Below, piece by piece: positions 4,497 through 33,455 of a stretch of DNA of 64,000 nucleotides. Both the position numbers and the translations under genes were made by a program. The notes under the pieces are model-generated. The model was not told where the DNA came from, did not search any database, and saw nothing but the letters and a program-made list of their open reading frames with translations. Source of the stretch: Clostridia bacterium. Lineage in GTDB: Bacteria > Bacillota > Clostridia > HGM11514. The DNA is taken from the NCBI GenBank assembly GCA_045586685.1, contig JAZNAU010000042.1, positions 7,822 through 71,821 of the forward strand, in the 5' to 3' direction. The number at the start of each line of letters is the position of its first letter. The first letter of the stretch is position 1.

Positions 4497-5873
4497 ATGA
4501 TTTTTTCAAGTACATTATTTTTGTTTTATTTTTTACCTACTGTATTATTAGCCTACTATCTTGTTCCAAAAAAAGCAAAAAATGCCGTGCTCTTTTTCTT
4601 TAGTCTTGTGTTTTATGCATGGGGAGAACCCGTTTACATCGGCATCATGTTGTTTTCCATTTTATTCAACTACGCCTGCGGGCTTGCTTTGGAAAAATTT
4701 AAACAGAAAAAGCAGATTCTCATCGCCTCGGTGATTATCAATCTGGGGATTTTATTTTTCTTTAAATATACAGACTTTTTTCTTGGAAGCATCTTAAATC
4801 CGCTGATTCCGGGAAGCGTACCTCTAACAGGAATCACTCTTCCTATCGGCATTTCTTTTTATACGTTTCAAACCATGTCTTATGTGATTGATGTCTATCG
4901 GGGCAAAGCATTCCCACAGAAAAATCTGATTTCCTTCGGAACCTATGTGGCATTGTTTCCCCAGTTGATTGCTGGACCCATTGTCCGCTACACCTCCATT
5001 GAAAAGCAACTGGAAAACAGACAGGTAACTGCAAAGGGCATCTGCACAGGTATTCTGTATTTTATTATCGGATTATCGAAGAAGGTGTTGATTGCTAATA
5101 ACATTGGTCTGCTTTGGGACACCATGCACGGTGCAGAGCATTTATCTGTTGTTTCTGCATGGCTGGGAATTTTGGCTTTTACCTTCCAGATTTATTTTGA
5201 TTTTTCCGGCTATTCAGATATGGCAATCGGTCTGGGTCGGTTATTTGGATTTCAATTTGAACAAAACTTTCATTACCCATACATTGCCCGCTCCATCACG
5301 GATTTTTGGAGAAGATGGCATATCAGTTTAAGCAGTTGGTTTAAAGAATATGTCTATATTCCTTTGGGCGGAAACAGAGTTTCCCCCTCCCGCTTACGAT
5401 TCAATCTTCTGATTGTCTGGGGGCTTACAGGTTTCTGGCACGGTGCAAGCTTTAATTTTATTGCATGGGGATTGTATTATGCAATTCTGCTGATTTTGGA
5501 AAAAGAGGTATTTGGGGTATGGTTGGAAAAATTGCCCAAGATTGTACAAAACTGTTATACTCTCTTGTTTGTTATCATCGGCTGGGTCTTTTTTGCGGCA
5601 AATGATTTTGGGGATGCCTTCCGTTACTTAGGTGCCATGTTCGGTTTTTCGGGCAGTCTTATTGATTCAGCAGCACAATATGCATTTACCTCTTACGGGC
5701 GGATGCTGTTACTGTGTCTGTTTGCTATGCTTCCCTTGGGCAAAAAGTTTGGGAAAAAGCTGTTTCAAAAAAATCCATTGTTGGTACTTCTTCCTGCCGT
5801 CTTACTCTTTTTCCTTTGTCTGACCTATCTTGCAGGTGCATCTTATAATCCATTCCTGTACTTCAGATTTTAA
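4497..5873 (+). CDS. MBOAT family membrane-bound O-acyltransferase (AlgI/DltB/PatA-like)
   Basis: 458 aa polytopic membrane protein. It carries the MBOAT signature around the conserved His (FWRRWHISLSSWFKEYVYIPLGG). Confidence 0.9.
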   Translation: MIFSSTLFLFYFLPTVLLAYYLVPKKAKNAVLFFFSLVFYAWGEPVYIGIMLFSILFNYACGLALEKFKQKKQILIASVIINLGILFFFKYTDFFLGSILNPLIPGSVPLTGITLPIGISFYTFQTMSYVIDVYRGKAFPQKNLISFGTYVALFPQLIAGPIVRYTSIEKQLENRQVTAKGICTGILYFIIGLSKKVLIANNIGLLWDTMHGAEHLSVVSAWLGILAFTFQIYFDFSGYSDMAIGLGRLFGFQFEQNFHYPYIARSITDFWRRWHISLSSWFKEYVYIPLGGNRVSPSRLRFNLLIVWGLTGFWHGASFNFIAWGLYYAILLILEKEVFGVWLEKLPKIVQNCYTLLFVIIGWVFFAANDFGDAFRYLGAMFGFSGSLIDSAAQYAFTSYGRMLLLCLFAMLPLGKKFGKKLFQKNPLLVLLPAVLLFFLCLTYLAGASYNPFLYFRF

Positions 5874-19686: not shown

Positions 19687-20335
19687 TTGTATCACACCCT
19701 TTTTTATAAGCCAATGCCACTCCGTCTCCCAAAGGAAGAAGAGAAGTGACATACTCTTCATTGTTCATCAATTCGTTCAAAAATTCTCTTAACCGCTTTA
19801 CAATGGTAATTTTTCTTCGTACTACCAGTTCATCCGTTGCCGTCATTCCCTTATATAGTACATTATCACAAACCAGAATACCTCTTTGTGGAATCAAAAT
19901 CTGATTCAAAAAGGTTTCGTACTGTCCCTTAGCTGCATCAATAAATACCAAATCAAATTCTCCAGTTACCAAAGACAGGGTTTTGGTAGCATCTCCTTCG
20001 ATAATGGTAATTCGATTTTCCAAGCCTGCTTCCGTAATATATTGCCGTGCAACAGAAATCATAGTTTCATCCCGCTCTAAAGTCACAATCTCTGCCCCAC
20101 AGCTCTTTGCCATTGCGATAGCAGAATAACCAATGGCGGTTCCGATTTCCAAAATCCGTTTTGGTTGCTTCACCGCACACAAAAATTGTAAAAAAGCAGA
20201 TGTTTCCCTCTGTGAAACAGGCACCTCATGAGTTTCGGCAAACTTTCTCATTTCGCAAAGCAAGGGATCCTTATCATCTGTCATTTCCCGTAAATACCGA
20301 ATAATATAGTCATAGTTAATGTTATCTTCAATCAC
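19679..20335 (-). CDS. trmR: class I SAM-dependent O-methyltransferase (TrmR/YrrM-like, caffeoyl-CoA OMT family)
   Basis: 218 aa with the SAM-binding ILEIGTAIGYSA motif and DLVFIDAAK. Confidence 0.85.
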   Translation of the reverse strand: MIEDNINYDYIIRYLREMTDDKDPLLCEMRKFAETHEVPVSQRETSAFLQFLCAVKQPKRILEIGTAIGYSAIAMAKSCGAEIVTLERDETMISVARQYITEAGLENRITIIEGDATKTLSLVTGEFDLVFIDAAKGQYETFLNQILIPQRGILVCDNVLYKGMTATDELVVRRKITIVKRLREFLNELMNNEEYVTSLLPLGDGVALAYKKGCDTNG

Positions 20336-24297: not shown

Positions 24298-25069
24298 GAT
24301 TTTGCTCTCCTAAATTCTTGAATTTCGCCCGTATTTCTGTTGCATGTCCACAAGTCATACTGCCCTCTTTACAAGGTCCGGACACACAGGAAGGTCCTGC
24401 TTTTGCAAAAAGCATGGGAGCTATATCACGCACCAACATCAACATCTGTGTTGCCAGCTCTCTAATTTCCCATTGAGCACGGTTGCAGCAGCGCAAACGG
24501 AAGAAGTTATACAAGCTTCTTGCGTTCATTGTTACAATCATTTTGGTTTCACAACCGTTAGGTAGAACAAAACGTGCATCTTCAATCGCCATCTTTTCAG
24601 CCTGACGGGCAGCAGATTTTTCTTCCACACCCTCATCCAACAATCGCTGATAGTGATTCTTACTTAAAATCTCTGTCAAACGGTCATATTTTTGCTGGAT
24701 TTCTTCCATTACTTCATCAAAAAATTCTTTTGCCTCAGGGCATTGCTCAATTTCCGGAGGGGTCACATAAGCAAATTGATTTTCCATTACATACCGCTGG
24801 GATTTCACACTGAAGGAAGCGATTCTGTGACGTGTAATCTGGGCAAGCAACGCACGGGAAATCCCCTCAATTCCAAAGGTAAAAGAAACATGCTCAATAG
24901 GACTTTCGTGCCCCAAAGACATAAGATGTTCAATAAATTTCTCTGTTTTTTCAGGATTTAATCCTTCCATCAGTCCGTCAATGTCAGAAGAAGAATAGCA
25001 TAATTTTGCAGCGGCAGCTACTAATCGCTCCGGATTTGGGGTATGCTCCAATAAAGTTACTTTAAGCAT
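24290..25069 (-). CDS. thyX: FAD-dependent thymidylate synthase ThyX
   Basis: ThyX signature RHRIASFSVKSQRY (RHRxxSxxxxSxRY). Confidence 0.9.
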   Translation of the reverse strand: MLKVTLLEHTPNPERLVAAAAKLCYSSSDIDGLMEGLNPEKTEKFIEHLMSLGHESPIEHVSFTFGIEGISRALLAQITRHRIASFSVKSQRYVMENQFAYVTPPEIEQCPEAKEFFDEVMEEIQQKYDRLTEILSKNHYQRLLDEGVEEKSAARQAEKMAIEDARFVLPNGCETKMIVTMNARSLYNFFRLRCCNRAQWEIRELATQMLMLVRDIAPMLFAKAGPSCVSGPCKEGSMTCGHATEIRAKFKNLGEQNHG

Positions 25070-25799
25070 TTGCTCCGTCTCCCTTCCAATTCTTTTTTAT
25101 CACAGTCATTAAAAACTTTGGCAAATTCATCATCCGCCCTATTCTTGACGGTTGCTTTATTAACCGATAAAACCATTCCAAATTTGTTTTACAGAAAAAT
25201 TCAGGAGCCCGCTTCACCGTTCCCGCCAGCACATCCACAGTTCCGCCTGCACCAATGCAAACCTTCACCTTGAGCTCGTCCCGATATTTTGCAATCCAGT
25301 TTTCCTGACGGGGAAATCCTGTACAAACCATTAAAAAGTCTGCATTTGAATTGTTTATCTGCTCTATAACAGCCTCGTCATTTTTAAAATATCCGTCACA
25401 AAAACCCGCAACACGGATTCCGGAATATTTCTCTTTCATGTTATTGGCAGCCATTTCTGCAACACCCGGTTTTCCACCCAGCAAAAAGACGCTTTTGTTG
25501 CGAGAGGGTAATCCTTCCAGCACATGGCAACACAGCTCAAATCCCGGAACACGCTCTTTAACCGGTGTGCCAATAATCTTCGCTCCATATACCACACCGA
25601 TGCCATCCGGCAATGTCAAATCTGCCGAATTCAGCACATCTCTATACTCCGGCACATGATACGCATGATAAACAATTTCCGGATTGGGAGTGACAACCAT
25701 ACGGGTTTCTTCCTCCTCCAACCATTGGAAAACCGTTTCAACCGCTTCGTCCATTGTGACATTATCAATTTTTACACCCAAAATATGTATTTGTTCCAT
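25062..25799 (-). CDS. tagA: WecB/TagA/CpsF family glycosyltransferase (N-acetylmannosaminyltransferase-like)
   Basis: 245 aa. Family blocks VVTPNPEIV and FLLGGKPGVAE. Confidence 0.85.
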   Translation of the reverse strand: MEQIHILGVKIDNVTMDEAVETVFQWLEEEETRMVVTPNPEIVYHAYHVPEYRDVLNSADLTLPDGIGVVYGAKIIGTPVKERVPGFELCCHVLEGLPSRNKSVFLLGGKPGVAEMAANNMKEKYSGIRVAGFCDGYFKNDEAVIEQINNSNADFLMVCTGFPRQENWIAKYRDELKVKVCIGAGGTVDVLAGTVKRAPEFFCKTNLEWFYRLIKQPSRIGRMMNLPKFLMTVIKKNWKGDGANA

Positions 25800-26139
25800 C
25801 AGCCGGTCGGCCCCTTTCCTTTCTTACCCTTACAGGGTAAATATAAAGATATAATGTTATTATAAAATCAGTAAATGATTTAAATACCGAGTATTTTACA
25901 CAATCCACACCAAGTCCTGCCATGTCAGGCCTTTCCTTCTCTTCACTTTTGCCCGTTACCTGACAAACATATTGTAAAACTTCCGAAACATCAATGTGGA
26001 GAATATCAGATATTCTTTTTGTAAAAGCCTTATTTAAATCTTTAGACTGATAAAGCAGATATTGCAAAGAATATGTTGCAATATCTTCTTGAGACCCTCT
26101 TATGTGTGGATATAAATGTGCTAATAATGAATAAGACAT
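25765..26139 (-). CDS. hypothetical small ORF; only the first ~85 aa look protein-like, possibly a truncated remnant
   Basis: Good RBS (GAAAGGG, 8 nt before the ATG). The start reads MSYSLLAHLYPHIRGSQEDIATYSLQYLL.... The 3' third runs into the tagA promoter region and reads like non-coding sequence. It is co-oriented with the upstream four-helix-bundle gene, 26 nt after its stop. Confidence 0.35.
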   Translation of the reverse strand: MSYSLLAHLYPHIRGSQEDIATYSLQYLLYQSKDLNKAFTKRISDILHIDVSEVLQYVCQVTGKSEEKERPDMAGLGVDCVKYSVFKSFTDFIITLYLYIYPVRVRKERGRPADGTNTYFGCKN

Positions 26140-26164
26140 ATTTATTTTCCCTTTCGTTTCAAGG

Positions 26165-26518
26165 TTATTGATTTCCTTTCGCAGTAGTTACGGATGCTAT
26201 AAGCAATTTCCTAATTTTGCTACATTTATCGTATATCTCTATATATTCTTCTTCAGTTATCATTTTCGTTTCCTTAAAAAGTCCCAACCAATAATCGCTT
26301 TCATAGCATTCTTTCAAAGCGATTTGAAACTTATTTATAAAATCAGCTTTGCTTGCTGCATAATTTGCTTCGTGAATATTAGCACCAATGCTTGTTCCAC
26401 TTCTTAAAAGCTGATTTAACAACACATTTCCTTTTCTATTTTCTTTGATTTCAGTACAAAGGTTTACAATATCAACCGCAAATTGTTTTGATAAATCTAC
26501 CAGTCTGTTTTCTTTCAT
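26165..26518 (-). CDS. four-helix-bundle protein (23S rRNA intervening-sequence protein / Avd-like family)
   Basis: 117 aa, all-helical. It has the family-typical GANIHEANYAASKADFINKFQIALKECYESDYWL block. Confidence 0.8.
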   Translation of the reverse strand: MKENRLVDLSKQFAVDIVNLCTEIKENRKGNVLLNQLLRSGTSIGANIHEANYAASKADFINKFQIALKECYESDYWLGLFKETKMITEEEYIEIYDKCSKIRKLLIASVTTAKGNQ

Positions 26519-26533
26519 ACCTTTTCTCCATTT

Positions 26534-26695
26534 AATGAATTGACAACTTCGTTGTCATGAATTGGCTAAAGCCATGAATTGTTGCTATCGCAACATGAAT
26601 TAAATTGCCTTTTAATGCACTTTAGTGCAATTCATGAGCCGTAAAGCTCAATTCATGAAATCTTTGATTTCAATTCATGCTGAAGGCAATTCATT
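26534..26695. repeat. mirror-symmetric array of eight 8-mers (CATGAATT x4 then AATTCATG x4) separated by unrelated short hairpin palindromes
   Basis: Copies at 26534-41 (aatgaatt), 26556-63, 26573-80, 26594-601, then 26629-36, 26650-57, 26672-79 and 26688-95 (aattcatt). Six of the seven intervening segments are perfect inverted repeats of unrelated sequence: gacaac/gttgtc, ggc/gcc, gttgc/gcaac, tgcact/agtgca, gagc/gctc, gaaatc/gatttc. The array sits in the transcribed leader of the four-helix-bundle gene. Confidence 0.7.
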
Positions 26696-26718
26696 GAGTT
26701 CAAGTTTCACTTGAACTC

Positions 26719-26747
26719 ATTATATCACAAACAAAGAAATATTTCAA
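26719..26747 (-). promoter_or_regulatory. consensus sigma-A promoter reading through the hairpin array into the four-helix-bundle gene
   Basis: Minus-strand TTGAAA (+26742-47), a 17-nt spacer, then TATAAT (+26719-24). Confidence 0.65.
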
Positions 26748-26760
26748 CTATTTTGTTTTT

Positions 26761-26793
26761 TTGCTGGACTTTCTGCGAAATTTGTAGTAAAAT
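26761..26793 (+). promoter_or_regulatory. candidate promoter for manA
   Basis: TTGCTG, 18 nt, then TAGTAAAAT. This is a weaker match. Confidence 0.3.
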
Positions 26794-26822
26794 AGAATTA
26801 GAACAAAAACAGGAGGCAAACC

Positions 26823-27740
26823 ATGTATCCTTTAAAAATGAAGCCTGAAATAAAGCACCTCATTTGGGGCGGAAAAAGACTTCGTGAATTTTATAATAAA
26901 AACTGTACCCGTGATGATGTGGGTGAAAGTTGGGAGGTTTCTGCCCATCCGGAAGGATTAAGCTACATTGCAAATGGTGCTCTAAAAGGGGTTTCTTTGG
27001 CAGATGCGATTCAACAATATCCGGAAGAAATTGCACCGGTGGAATTTCCTCTTTTATTTAAACTGATAGATGCCAGTCAAGATCTGTCCATTCAAGTGCA
27101 TCCTGACGATGCTTACGTTCAGAAAACCAACAATAACCTTCACGGCAAAATAGAAATGTGGTATATTATTGATGCAAAACCGGGTGCCCGTATCGGGTAC
27201 GGCTGGAATCAGACCATGACTCCTGATTTGGTCAGACAAGCCATTGAAAACGGCACTTTGGAGCAGTATATTAACTATATTCCCGTAACAGCAGGACAAG
27301 CTTATTTTATTCCTGCCGGAATTGTGCATTGTCTTTGCAAAGGTCTTTTGGTAGCAGAAATTCAACAAAATTCCACCATGACCTATCGTCTCTACGACTA
27401 TAACCGCAAAGACAAAAACGGAAATAATCGTCAACTTCACATCCACGAAAGTCTGGATGTGCTTGATTATTCCGATAACAGAAATGCAACGGTTGTAACA
27501 GGAGATAATGTCATTTTGGCAAGTTGCCCCTATTTTACGGCTGAAAAAATTATAAGCGACTATTACAAAGGAGATACCAAGGATACATTTGAAATTCTGT
27601 TTTTTGTTAACGGACACGGAGAAATTATTACAGATCAAGGAACGGAATCTTTCCAAGCGGGAGATACTTATCTGCTCCCCTCCTCTCTTGGTGCATATAC
27701 CATAAAGGGACAATGCACCATAATGCGATGTGTAGAATAA
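26823..27740 (+). CDS. manA: mannose-6-phosphate isomerase, class I
   Basis: 305 aa cupin with the type-I PMI metal site block QVHPDD and EIQQNSTMTYRLYDYNR. Confidence 0.9.
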   Translation: MYPLKMKPEIKHLIWGGKRLREFYNKNCTRDDVGESWEVSAHPEGLSYIANGALKGVSLADAIQQYPEEIAPVEFPLLFKLIDASQDLSIQVHPDDAYVQKTNNNLHGKIEMWYIIDAKPGARIGYGWNQTMTPDLVRQAIENGTLEQYINYIPVTAGQAYFIPAGIVHCLCKGLLVAEIQQNSTMTYRLYDYNRKDKNGNNRQLHIHESLDVLDYSDNRNATVVTGDNVILASCPYFTAEKIISDYYKGDTKDTFEILFFVNGHGEIITDQGTESFQAGDTYLLPSSLGAYTIKGQCTIMRCVE

Positions 27741-32549: not shown

Positions 32550-32667
32550 AGTTTATTGCACCTCCTTAAAATGTGGTAAATGGCGGAACGGTTCATCCGT
32601 TCCTCCCACCTATAACAAACGGCCGATGCCGAATATTATCTTAACAATTCTGCTTGTCCAAAGCAGA
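32550..32667 (-). promoter_or_regulatory. rplK leader with second GGGAGGAACGG...CCGUUCC hairpin (candidate L1 autoregulatory site)
   Basis: Minus-strand GGGAGGAACGGAUGAACCGUUCCGCC (+32582-32607), then an AGGAGGTG RBS. Confidence 0.4.
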
Positions 32668-33189
32668 CTATACCAAAAGTTCCACCTGATCAAATTCCAG
32701 TTCAACCGGAGTTTCTCTGCCGAACATAGAAACACAGACACGAACCTTTTTCTTTTCCATGCTAATTTCTTCTACCACACCGATAAAGCTTTCCAGAGGT
32801 CCATCTACCACCTTCACGCTATCACCAACATGATAATCAATGGAAATAATTTTTGTTTCGATACCCATATTTGCCGCTTCATCATCAGTCAGAGGCACAG
32901 GTTTGCTTCCGGGTCCAACAAACCCGGTAACACCTCTGGTATTACGAACGATATACCATGTTTCGTCCGTCATTACCATTTTAACCATTACATAAGTTGG
33001 AAACTTTTTGCGGATAGATACCTTTTTTTGTCCATCCTTCATTTCCACAACTTCTTCCATGGGAACCTGAACATCCACTACCAAGTCTTCCATGTTACGA
33101 TTTTTAGCGGTCAACTCAATACCGTCTCTTACTTTGTTTTCATATCCCGTCAGGGTATGAACTACATACCATTTTGCGTTCTCTGCCAT
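32668..33189 (-). CDS. nusG: transcription termination/antitermination factor NusG
   Basis: 173 aa with NGN and KOW domains (WYVVHTLTGYENKV ...). Confidence 0.95.
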   Translation of the reverse strand: MAENAKWYVVHTLTGYENKVRDGIELTAKNRNMEDLVVDVQVPMEEVVEMKDGQKKVSIRKKFPTYVMVKMVMTDETWYIVRNTRGVTGFVGPGSKPVPLTDDEAANMGIETKIISIDYHVGDSVKVVDGPLESFIGVVEEISMEKKKVRVCVSMFGRETPVELEFDQVELLV

Positions 33190-33236
33190 TGTTGCAGGAA
33201 GCCGGTCGGCCTCCGCACCTCCTTTTGCTTTCTAAA

Positions 33237-33455
33237 TTAAGCTAAATTCAACAGTGCTTTCAGTCCCAGACTGAATACCCAGTCCAAAGCTGCAAGACAA
33301 AGACCTACAATAATAATGGTAATCAAAACAACTGTAGTATCCTTTCTTACTTTAGAGAAGCTGGGCCAGATTACCTTTTTCAGTTCCGCCCAAACACTTT
33401 TGAAGTATTTTCCGATTCTTTGAAATAAATTCATTTTTTCCGCAGCTGCTGCCAT
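33237..33455 (-). CDS. secE: preprotein translocase subunit SecE
   Basis: 72 aa, single TM. The secE-nusG-rplK-rplA order is conserved. Confidence 0.9.
   Translation of the reverse strand: MAAAAEKMNLFQRIGKYFKSVWAELKKVIWPSFSKVRKDTTVVLITIIIVGLCLAALDWVFSLGLKALLNLA

Follow-up and report, generated by a model that had tools for sequence, protein, structure and literature searches.

The 64,000-nucleotide stretch of Clostridia bacterium contig JAZNAU010000042.1 analysed here (the window; all coordinates follow its numbering, with (-) denoting the minus strand) contains two small open reading frames (ORFs) between manA and tagA, and the locus raises the question of how these came to lie there and whether they belong together. 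A preliminary description had reported both, and they were recovered at the stated places on the minus strand, at 26165..26518 (117 aa) and 25765..26139 (124 aa), 25 nt apart. It had viewed them as an AT-rich, horizontally acquired islet, consisting of a four-helix-bundle (4HB) protein akin to Avd, the accessory protein of diversity-generating retroelements (DGRs), and a decayed or truncated partner. The analysis presented here indicated that the islet is an insertion in which the 4HB gene and an upstream array of hairpins and linkers form a unit that recurs in unrelated surroundings, while the second ORF is the start of a gene of other origin.

An insertion at the tagA promoter

The spacer between manA and tagA measured 1023 nt in the window vs. 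165-167 nt in three relatives (L174-L176), whose TagA proteins (P0148, P0149, and P0151; 92, 89, and 84% identity, respectively) were the closest in the database and which had the gene order Zip-rubredoxin-flavodiiron protein-manA <> tagA-thyX-tmk-LPG_synthase_C-acetyltransferase-DJ-1 in common with the window. The window diverged from these relatives right after a TATAAT hexamer at 26719-26724 and rejoined them at a second TATAAT at 25859-25864. The direct repeat at the borders of the insert comprised at least 6 bases; together with the next three bases it read TATAATGAG on the left and TATAATAAC on the right, each one mismatch away from the TATAATAAG of two of the three relatives (L174 and L176). 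The lack of the insert in three relatives of identical synteny bore out the horizontal acquisition proposed earlier, and we conclude with high confidence that positions 25865-26718 are a horizontally acquired insertion in the -10 box and 5′ untranslated region (UTR) of the tagA-thyX-tmk operon.

The AT-richness pointed out in the preliminary description was confirmed, with a G+C content of 0.30-0.32 across 25850-26900 vs. approximately 0.39-0.47 in the tagA, thyX, and manA coding flanks, but it did not serve as proof: nearby 300-nt segments also dropped to 0.32-0.34, so that composition alone was weak evidence of foreign origin, and the status as an islet was derived mainly from the empty site of the relatives.

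The left copy of the direct repeat is the -10 hexamer of a promoter which, since its TTGAAA-17-TATAAT arrangement was present in all three empty-site relatives, was identified as the native tagA promoter. It is now placed to drive the insert. A scan found no terminator-like site inside the inserted DNA, and the transcript of the native promoter should therefore cross the 4HB gene and the truncated ORF into tagA, in which case all three would be co-transcribed. The earlier suggestion that the small ORF degenerates into the tagA promoter did not hold, since the promoter (26747..26719) lies upstream of the whole insert and only the second TATAAT and the native 5′ UTR were found under the tail of the ORF.

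A recurring unit of hairpin-linker array and 4HB gene

Exact-sequence look-ups of the 4HB protein, the small ORF product (P0001), TagA, and ManA returned no record, and context was therefore drawn from close homologues; all related loci were on metagenome or metagenome-assembled genome (MAG) contigs. Nucleotide identity between the window and other loci (blastn, 82-86%) extended from 26727 or 26700 to 26165 and ended at the stop codon of the 4HB gene. The conserved unit, hereafter the module, consisted of the hairpin-linker array (approximately 180-200 nt) and the 4HB gene, and nothing more. In L017, L018, L020, and L021, the module was 97-98% identical over 600-630 nt, with unrelated flanks. 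An identical 117-aa protein (P0049) was encoded after purH, tuf, a Cu_amine_oxidN1 gene, MatE, and a DUF2500 gene, thus in at least five contexts, while P0027 was encoded between an Fe-dependent repressor gene and CBAH, and P0028 (94% identity) 8 nt upstream of a glyoxalase gene. The module of L026 was flanked by a perfect 10-bp direct repeat (TTGACAAAAG), and the sequence it splits was found unsplit as paralogous leaders in L017, L018, and L020. The first gene downstream of 44 other modules was heterogeneous, including NUDIX, helix-turn-helix (HTH) regulator, zinc ribbon, IlvD, GlgB, methyltransferase, short-chain dehydrogenase/reductase (SDR), CBAH, and DUF4379 genes. The array and 4HB gene together are most likely a widely spread selfish intergenic element.

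The array of the window contained four forward linkers, (C)ATGAATTG, and four reverse linkers, CAATTCAT(G), with short variable hairpins between them. On the sense strand, its 5′ part was made up of an 11-bp hairpin (H0), AATGAATTG, a hairpin, and three further units of CATGAATTG plus hairpin, and its 3′ part of the centre AAAAGGCAATTTAATTCATG, three units of hairpin plus CAATTCATG, and then AAATGGAG and the ATG. All six exact copies of CATGAATTG in the window lay within this leader. A long-range helix, P1 (GAATTGCCTT / AAGGCAATTT), encloses hairpins 2-4 by pairing the first linker and the bases following it with the centre, 75-81 nt apart.

Several lines of evidence supported this structure. 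Fold z-scores of the leader ranged from -5.4 to -7.4, and a covariance model built from eight sequences scored 197 bits on the sense strand of the window vs. 68 bits on the antisense strand; it had no match in the empty sites, in the loci of the nuclease-like gene described below, or past the 4HB stop codon in the window. End-closing hairpins were formed by 161 of the 238 segments between like linkers and by 17 when these were shuffled; the stems were of 49 distinct kinds. P1 covaried through at least seven complementary pairs (CCTT/AAGG, CAACC/GGTTG, CCC/GGG, CAGCC/GGCTG, CGCG/CGCG, CGCC/GGCG, and CGCTC/GAGCG). In 50 model hits, on an alignment fitted to the covariance model, 90.8% of cells were paired vs. 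72.6% when shuffled and 22-38% when slid, and 24 of 38 pairs had double changes. Hairpin 5 of the structure model was unsupported (54% of cells paired), the sequence GGAGCGAAGCGAG being conserved there instead. No Rfam 15 family matched the leader, whether of the window (E ≤ 10) or of L017, L018, L020, and L021 (E ≤ 0.01); the hits returned were at chance level. Of 80 metagenome loci, reaching down to 58% protein identity, nearly all had this array design ahead of the 4HB gene, and the linkers varied by lineage (TGATTTG/CAAATCA and GTGAAAT/ATTTCAC, as well as GTGATATT/ATATCAC in a faecal phage record). The secondary structure of the array is thus conserved across copies, and the coupling of the 4HB gene to a structured leader, already noted in the preliminary description, was substantiated by recurrence, covariance model, and covariation.

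The forward linkers read TGAATTG in 92% of cases and the reverse linkers CAAATCA in 31%. A central mismatch separated the two (TGAATTG vs. CAAATCA) in 38 of 50 arrays, indicating that the linkers are conserved for a purpose other than mutual pairing; from their sequence and arrangement, they look like evenly spaced single-stranded recognition sites. In three loci (L109, L110, and L095), the units had a single orientation only. The minimum free energy fold is a 'zipped ladder' of forward linkers paired with reverse ones; as the conserved structure, it was rejected on account of the 38 mismatched and the one-orientation arrays.

The number and placement of arrays varied among copies. L109 (4720-5000) and L110 (2040-2200) represent one locus with 12 and 7 same-orientation units (GTGAATTG + hairpin), respectively, upstream of the 4HB gene; the array begins 4 nt past the upstream gene's stop codon and shows rapid expansion or contraction. 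A second array past the 4HB stop codon, as leader of the next gene, was present in numerous more distant copies, including L064 (4810-5003 and 5340-5570), L047, L048, L072, and L099, and in L064 this was a direct duplicate including 27 nt of flank. A scan of viral contigs for CATGAATTG-N-CATGAATTG returned 53 loci, mostly other tandem repeats or chance matches. True arrays, of the same design and free of a 4HB gene, were found only in two IMG/VR phage contigs (L121 218-388, 2867-3034, and 4508-4777; L162 9576-9739), where they are intergenic and adjoin portal and large-terminase genes. No 4HB protein was detected in the 53 loci at phmmer E < 1e-3, and a protein scan of viral contigs gave one distant locus (L035). 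A faecal phage record (L178, MT835815.1; 2290-2450) carried a 53%-identical 4HB gene just past a tRNA gene, with an array of the linker GTGATATT / ATATCAC. In the cultured gut bacterium Monoglobus pectinilyticus (L177, NZ_OY725736.1; 2430-2900), an unannotated 4HB pseudogene with two in-frame stops separates hsdS from hsdR in a type I restriction-modification (R-M) operon, flanked by short inverted AATTAGGAATGAG-type repeats, not by an array.

The position of H0 was occupied by a hairpin of different stem sequence in L027, L017, L036, L047, L026, L048, and L042. H0 begins right after TATAAT in several AT-rich hosts (26719-26724 in the window; 3797-3802 in L027; also L036, L047, and L048), and right after TTGACA in L017-L026. 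Either the module favours promoter hexamers as targets, or only copies behind promoters survive. The TTGAAA/TATAAT pair, of which L027 has a similar one, was also considered as a promoter of the module's own, a reading rejected for the window because the pair occurs in the empty sites as well. A second repeated intergenic leader of approximately 270 nt (…TTGCCGAT…ATCGGATGCGAGAAAATCCAGTATTCTCGCGGG…TTCACTGTTCTCCTGACTTGACACGAG…), without Rfam match, was found before several small signal-peptide genes (L017 7201-7604; L018 5258-5400, 6040-6322, and 7112-7219; L020 4928-5205). The 4HB module of L017-L021 and L026 sits inside a copy of this leader, at CTTGACA.

The 4HB protein matched PF05635 (E 1.1e-25; 90.3 bits vs. 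a cut-off of 33.8; residues 3-107 of 117), the family predicted for it in the preliminary description, and TIGR02436 (E 9e-29; 99.9 bits vs. a cut-off of 24). These scores exceed both curated cut-offs and place it clearly in the S23p or 'four helix bundle protein' family, which includes BT_0352 and XCC0516. Its nearest solved relative was BT_0352 of Bacteroides thetaiotaomicron (PDB 2RLD; 51% identity), matched at E 4e-28 with the single sequence and at E 7e-38 with a profile of 28 homologues. This profile also reached the pentameric XCC0516 (2GSC; E 0.03) but not phage Avd (4DWL) at E ≤ 10. An AlphaFold2 (AF2) monomer model (pLDDT 90.4) consisted of an up-down bundle of four helices (5-27, 32-51, 57-83, and 89-115). 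In Foldseek comparisons, it matched 2RLD with a template modelling (TM) score of 0.87-0.91, 2GSC with 0.82, and both Avd (4DWL) and the DGR ribonucleoprotein (RNP; 8UBE/8UB7) with 0.78-0.80 (root-mean-square deviation approximately 2 Å, 12% identity, prob 1.0). The kinship with Avd claimed earlier therefore stands for the fold only: since the sequence profile misses Avd, 'Avd-like' is true of the fold, not of close kinship. Both 2RLD and 2GSC were deposited with five chains, the window protein having been modelled as a monomer, and the Xanthomonas S23p protein is a homopentameric torus (PMC4990558).

Compared with eight other copies, the 4HB gene had a nonsynonymous divergence (dN) of 0.03-0.16, and the ratio to synonymous divergence (dN/dS) was 0.015-0.04 in the five copies with estimable dS, which was at least 1, i.e., with synonymous sites at or past saturation. 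These substitution rates argue for strong purifying selection on a gene that is not decaying. Clusters of homologues at 87-94% identity numbered more than 120, and more remote proteins ran into the thousands, nearly all of them 116-122 aa long. A search of PADLOC-DB 2.0 gave no usable system match for the 4HB protein, with a marginal SduA hit (E 8.5e-4). Membership of the PF05635/TIGR02436 family is in itself silent on mechanism.

The small ORF and its full-length relatives

Homology of the small ORF to full-length relatives (tblastn/blastn) ran from 26162 to 25904 or 25912 and ended sharply after 'ERPDMAGL' (codons 76-79); 26 database relatives shared only the first approximately 60% of the 124-aa ORF. 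As the homology began 14-23 nt before the ATG, the gene's own ribosome-binding site (RBS) region came along. The preliminary description had rightly taken the ORF for a truncated gene, protein-like only at its N-terminus, but had put the protein-like part at approximately 85 aa instead of codons 1-76/79. Its supposition of a full-length ancestor in relatives was confirmed by homology search, which yielded a gene of approximately 345 codons (343-350 aa; 16 genome loci, Clostridia MAGs). The remainder of this gene (approximately 270 codons, including the E-x-K residues) was found nowhere in the 64 kb.

The full-length relatives were assigned, with moderate support, as PD-(D/E)xK-like. ERPDM...(12)...CEMKFYA was invariant in 13 full-length sequences and reads as a PD-(D/E)xK motif ('RPD...(x12)...E-M-K'), and the relatives scored 20.8-21.5 bits with PF14281 (PDDEXK_4), just below the cut-off of 22.3. 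A model of the N-terminal 214 aa (P0013, pLDDT 73) had the restriction endonuclease EcoT38I as its best Foldseek match (prob 0.98, with a weak E of 5.5e-3 and TM 0.41), followed by DrdV, YaeQ, SfsA, and LlaBIII. Matches to these folds were weak; PDB sequence searches with the nuclease family gave no match, and PADLOC-DB 2.0 gave only a marginal PDC-M35B hit (E 1e-3). In contrast to the PD-(D/E)xK proteins, the window copy ends before E-x-K, approximately 270 codons short, and its catalytic core is not intact. Cut between its PD and ExK halves, the stub is, as read from its sequence, dead and without function.

The nuclease-like gene is itself accessory and scattered in its occurrence, often with SIR2, Macro, Fic, AAA ATPase, or type I R-M genes close by. 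In L001 (185-3963) and L002 (3278-7038), it was the last of four co-oriented genes, following those of an AAA ATPase (GajA/PtuA/AriA type), a 240-aa unknown protein, and a methylase-like 395-aa protein, an arrangement that may be a defence-type operon. A stub homologue was present in none of approximately 150 4HB or array loci, and neither the 4HB gene nor the array was found near stub homologues in 21 loci (16 genome loci with the full-length gene and 5 metagenome loci, L169-L173). Thus, of the 'decayed or truncated partner' described previously, the truncated gene was upheld; the partnership was contradicted by these co-occurrence counts and by the heterogeneous genes after the 44 modules.

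Features of the insertion and its surroundings in the window (Table 1) were located as follows.

Table 1. Position, strand, and basis of assignment of features in and around the insertion between tagA and manA.
Feature	Position	Strand	Basis
tagA/tarA (WecG/TagA/CpsF glycosyltransferase), first gene of the tagA-thyX-tmk operon downstream of the insert	25062..25799	-	PF03808 E 1.8e-62; synteny
Second TATAAT (25859-25864), then native tagA 5′ UTR and RBS	25800..25864	-	Aligns with the sequence after the single TATAAT in L174-L176
Inserted DNA, 854 bp	25865..26718	-	Orthologous manA-tagA spacers of L174-L176 lack it; alignments put both junctions at TATAAT
39-nt tail between gene stub and right-hand TATAAT	25865..25903	-	No match in fetched loci; not in empty sites
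Apparently dead 5′ fragment (own RBS region and codons 1-76/79) of an accessory gene of approximately 345 aa, probably PD-(D/E)xK-like	25904..26162	-	tblastn/blastn
4HB protein gene, 117 aa (PF05635 / TIGR02436; S23p/Avd fold), intact	26165..26518	-	Profile and PDB matches, AF2, Foldseek, dN/dS
Shine-Dalgarno GGAG of the 4HB gene, 7 nt before the ATG, right after the last linker	26526..26529	-	Read from sequence; same place in aligned copies
Hairpin-linker array (leader)	26532..26697	-	Repeats, fold z-scores, covariance model, covariation; no Rfam family
H0, 11-bp hairpin at the left end of the module	26695..26719	-	Inverted repeat, 11/11 complementary
Native tagA promoter: -35 TTGAAA 26742-26747, 17-nt spacer, TG-extended -10 TATAAT 26719-26724	26719..26747	-	Promoter scan 11/12 with TG; in empty sites L174, L175, and L176
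manA (class I mannose-6-phosphate isomerase), divergent neighbour	26823..27740	+	TIGR00218 E 6.8e-43; synteny

Outside these features, the GC skew between positions 20000 and 32000 was negative along the minus-strand genes to approximately 26600, positive from manA to approximately 29900, and negative again; it tracks gene orientation and marks no replication landmark. A 204-aa ORF at 32626-33240 (+) had a low-complexity translation and no Pfam match and is probably no gene. Downstream of its islet, L021 also carries a cobalamin riboswitch (RF00174, 47 bits; 5168-5381), which is unrelated to the finding.

Origin of the insertion and relation to known elements

High confidence attaches to the insertion and where it begins and ends, to the protein's family and fold, to the stub being truncated, to the unit recurring in unrelated contexts, to the conserved array structure, and to the lack of DGR parts. 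The explanation that we favour for them, with confidence only a little better than even, is that of a composite insert, in which a selfish array and 4HB module, whose protein acts on its own array, carries the stub as baggage. The insert would consist of two unrelated pieces, the module (26165-26718) and the dead stub with its 39-nt tail, the latter having arrived, or stayed behind, as functionless baggage. The module would use host transcription, here from the native tagA promoter and elsewhere by read-through from the upstream gene. The 4HB protein may bind the single-stranded linkers shown by the hairpins of its own leader transcript, as Avd binds DGR RNA, and the nucleoprotein complex could control the protein's own translation and/or the maintenance or spread of the element. 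Binding to its own array, an idea modelled on Avd and on the S23p pentamers, is plausible but tentative.

Several observations weigh against this explanation. The TATAAT repeat is short and frequent in AT-rich DNA; border direct repeats are short in general (6-10 bp), and in the window they enclose module plus stub, not the module alone. If transcription starts approximately 7 nt past the -10 box, H0 is incomplete in the RNA of this copy. The link between protein and array is one of co-location only, L121 and L162 show that the array can exist alone, and no mobilising enzyme was identified. The pair counts on the 50 hits, as stated, come from an alignment fitted to the covariance model. Furthermore, the forward block repeats the hairpins of the reverse block in inverted form, with loops of GAA, GCA, or AAA in one block and TTC, TGC, or TGAC in the other, and the GNA triloops are of the GCGAAGC mini-hairpin type. 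Such triloops are better known from DNA mini-hairpins than from RNA, GCGAAGC being famed as a stable DNA hairpin. Inverted blocks and GNA triloops thus suggest that the folded species may be single-stranded DNA. For RNA spoke the covarying long-range helix P1, the sense-strand pair counts, in which G-U outnumbered A-C by 33 to 14, and the 3′ end of the array, which always abuts the Shine-Dalgarno sequence of the next gene.

A rival that is unlikely, though serious, takes the array as a DNA-level repeat resembling repetitive extragenic palindromic (REP) sequences and bacterial interspersed mosaic elements (BIMEs), its hairpins forming in single-stranded DNA that is copied, inverted, or expanded by an enzyme in trans or by replication slippage, with the 4HB protein as passenger or host factor. 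With REP/BIME sequences and their REP-associated tyrosine transposases (RAYTs; REPtrons), the module indeed shares short GC-rich hairpins with conserved flanking bases, arrays of both orientations, an intergenic position in operons, variable copy number, and a small gene embedded among the repeats. The 4HB-free arrays of the phage contigs (three around the portal and terminase genes in L121, and that of L162), the fast shift in unit number between the same flanks (12 in L109 vs. 7 in L110), the duplication of an entire array plus flank on either side of the L064 gene, the inversion of forward and reverse blocks with strand-specific loops, and the common GCGAAGC-type core agree with it. However, the conserved and variable parts are swapped, as the array of the window conserves the linker and its stems all differ (49 distinct), and the long-range helix is conserved in arrays. 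The covariation of P1 over approximately 80 nt needs a long single strand, most easily a transcript, and both the sense-strand bias of G-U over A-C and the constant position of the array's 3′ end at a Shine-Dalgarno sequence are at odds with a purely DNA-level repeat. Likewise, the 4HB gene and array occur together in nearly all of approximately 80 loci to 58% protein identity, with lineage-specific linkers. The protein is a helical bundle (PF05635) without HUH/Y1 motifs, and an HUH/RAYT-type gene was seen in no locus.

The remaining alternatives start from the protein. Retro-mobility through an RNA intermediate, with a reverse transcriptase (RT) in trans and the Avd-like protein as cofactor, the stub and tail being 3′-transduced donor flank, is decidedly improbable. 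Avd binds DGR RNA and is indispensable to the RT as a cofactor (PMC10053308), and DGR RNP structures were matched by Foldseek. Short border direct repeats of varying length (TATAAT here, TTGACAAAAG in L026) and an insert consisting of the module plus the first 260 nt of some donor's downstream DNA, as read-through transcripts would carry, are also in line with retro-mobility. The idea is attractive, but the evidence for it is circumstantial only: none of the copies had an RT linked to it, a donor locus combining the module with an intact nuclease gene was absent from the fetched loci, many copies are without a promoter of their own, and there was no poly-A or other 3′ signature. A decayed two-gene system of defence or toxin-antitoxin type, the 4HB protein having served to regulate the PD-(D/E)xK nuclease or to neutralise it, is highly improbable. 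The two ORFs do lie 25 nt apart on one strand, full-length stub homologues occur near defence-type genes (AAA ATPase and methylase-like in L001/L002, Fic and type I R-M in L009, SIR2 in L169), and some 4HB copies precede DUF4379 and AbiTii-like genes. Set against this are the mutual absence of the two genes from each other's loci (0/21 and 0/~150), the mutually unrelated genes after 44 modules, the end of module homology at the 4HB stop codon, the stub's own RBS region, and the lack of PADLOC system hits. Hardly credible, finally, is a DGR remnant, i.e., an Avd gene left after loss of RT, template repeat (TR), and variable repeat (VR), to which the Avd-like fold and the position of PF05635 as the commonest family adjoining DGR RTs (PMC10053308) might point. 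None of the 54 window ORFs of at least 90 aa was seen to encode an RT (translations read by eye, including the large housekeeping ORFs; 10 unclear ORFs profile-scanned), nor was an RT family listed for the called neighbours in 18 related loci. A repeat search of 25700-26900 for TR/VR gave only short linker repeats and chance pairs, no whole-window TR/VR search having been made. The preliminary description had likewise concluded that the locus is not a complete DGR; with no RT or TR/VR seen and a relation to Avd in fold only, we conclude that it is not a DGR. A unit kept as array plus gene, with dN/dS of 0.015-0.04, does not fit a leftover, and sequence profiles reach BT_0352 and XCC0516, not Avd. 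Avd itself is a nucleic-acid-binding pentamer acting on an adjacent-encoded structured RNA; in the window the structured element is upstream and a modular repeat, and the 12% identity comes without a profile match.

The known element that the module works most like is the 23S rRNA intervening sequence (IVS) of Leptospira, Coxiella, Xanthomonas, and Brucella, likewise a small selfish insert with a PF05635 ORF, a host transcript, and strong local structure. Coxiella strains differ in the number of short tandem repeats that immediately precede the ORF (PMC4990558). Yet the module lacks the defining features of an IVS. It lies between manA and tagA, with no rRNA match in 25000-27500; there is no long terminal inverted repeat or RNase III stem, the structure in the window being upstream only; and it has a one-sided hairpin-linker array, or arrays in direct orientation (L064). 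Moreover, the Coxiella ORF is decaying, whereas the window ORF has a good Shine-Dalgarno sequence and is under strong purifying selection. For the S23p family, no description of an accompanying array was found in the literature. The literature on PF05635, TIGR02436, S23, and stand-alone Avd, in the limited part covered, contained no account of the array or of module mobility, which is no proof of novelty. The unit of array and 4HB gene looks like an undescribed kind of selfish intergenic element. A bolder reading, which we regard as doubtful, is a new class of mobile element or RNP, in which a pentameric bundle protein would recognise a linker array in RNA or single-stranded DNA and propagate the unit into promoters and spacers without a cis-encoded transposase, integrase, or RT, sometimes carrying fragments of neighbouring genes.

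For the host, the insert parts the native -35/-10 promoter from tagA-thyX-tmk and may thus alter expression of this wall-teichoic-acid and thymidylate operon. In Bacteroidota, cyanobacteria, and gut Clostridia, few small orphan genes are commoner than those of Avd's stand-alone relatives ('four helix bundle protein', S23p), and we know of no role for them beyond DGR-linked Avd and some located in 23S rRNA IVSs. One 4HB subfamily is now tied to a precise, conserved, and modular nucleic-acid structure, with which it travels as a discrete insertion. This makes its function testable: whether the protein binds the array, whether as RNA or single-stranded DNA, and whether the outcome is translation control, transcript protection, or DNA movement. 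For annotation, it follows that in this 4HB subfamily the downstream gene is not a partner. If the bolder reading of a new class were true, thousands of orphan genes annotated as 'four helix bundle protein' would gain a function.

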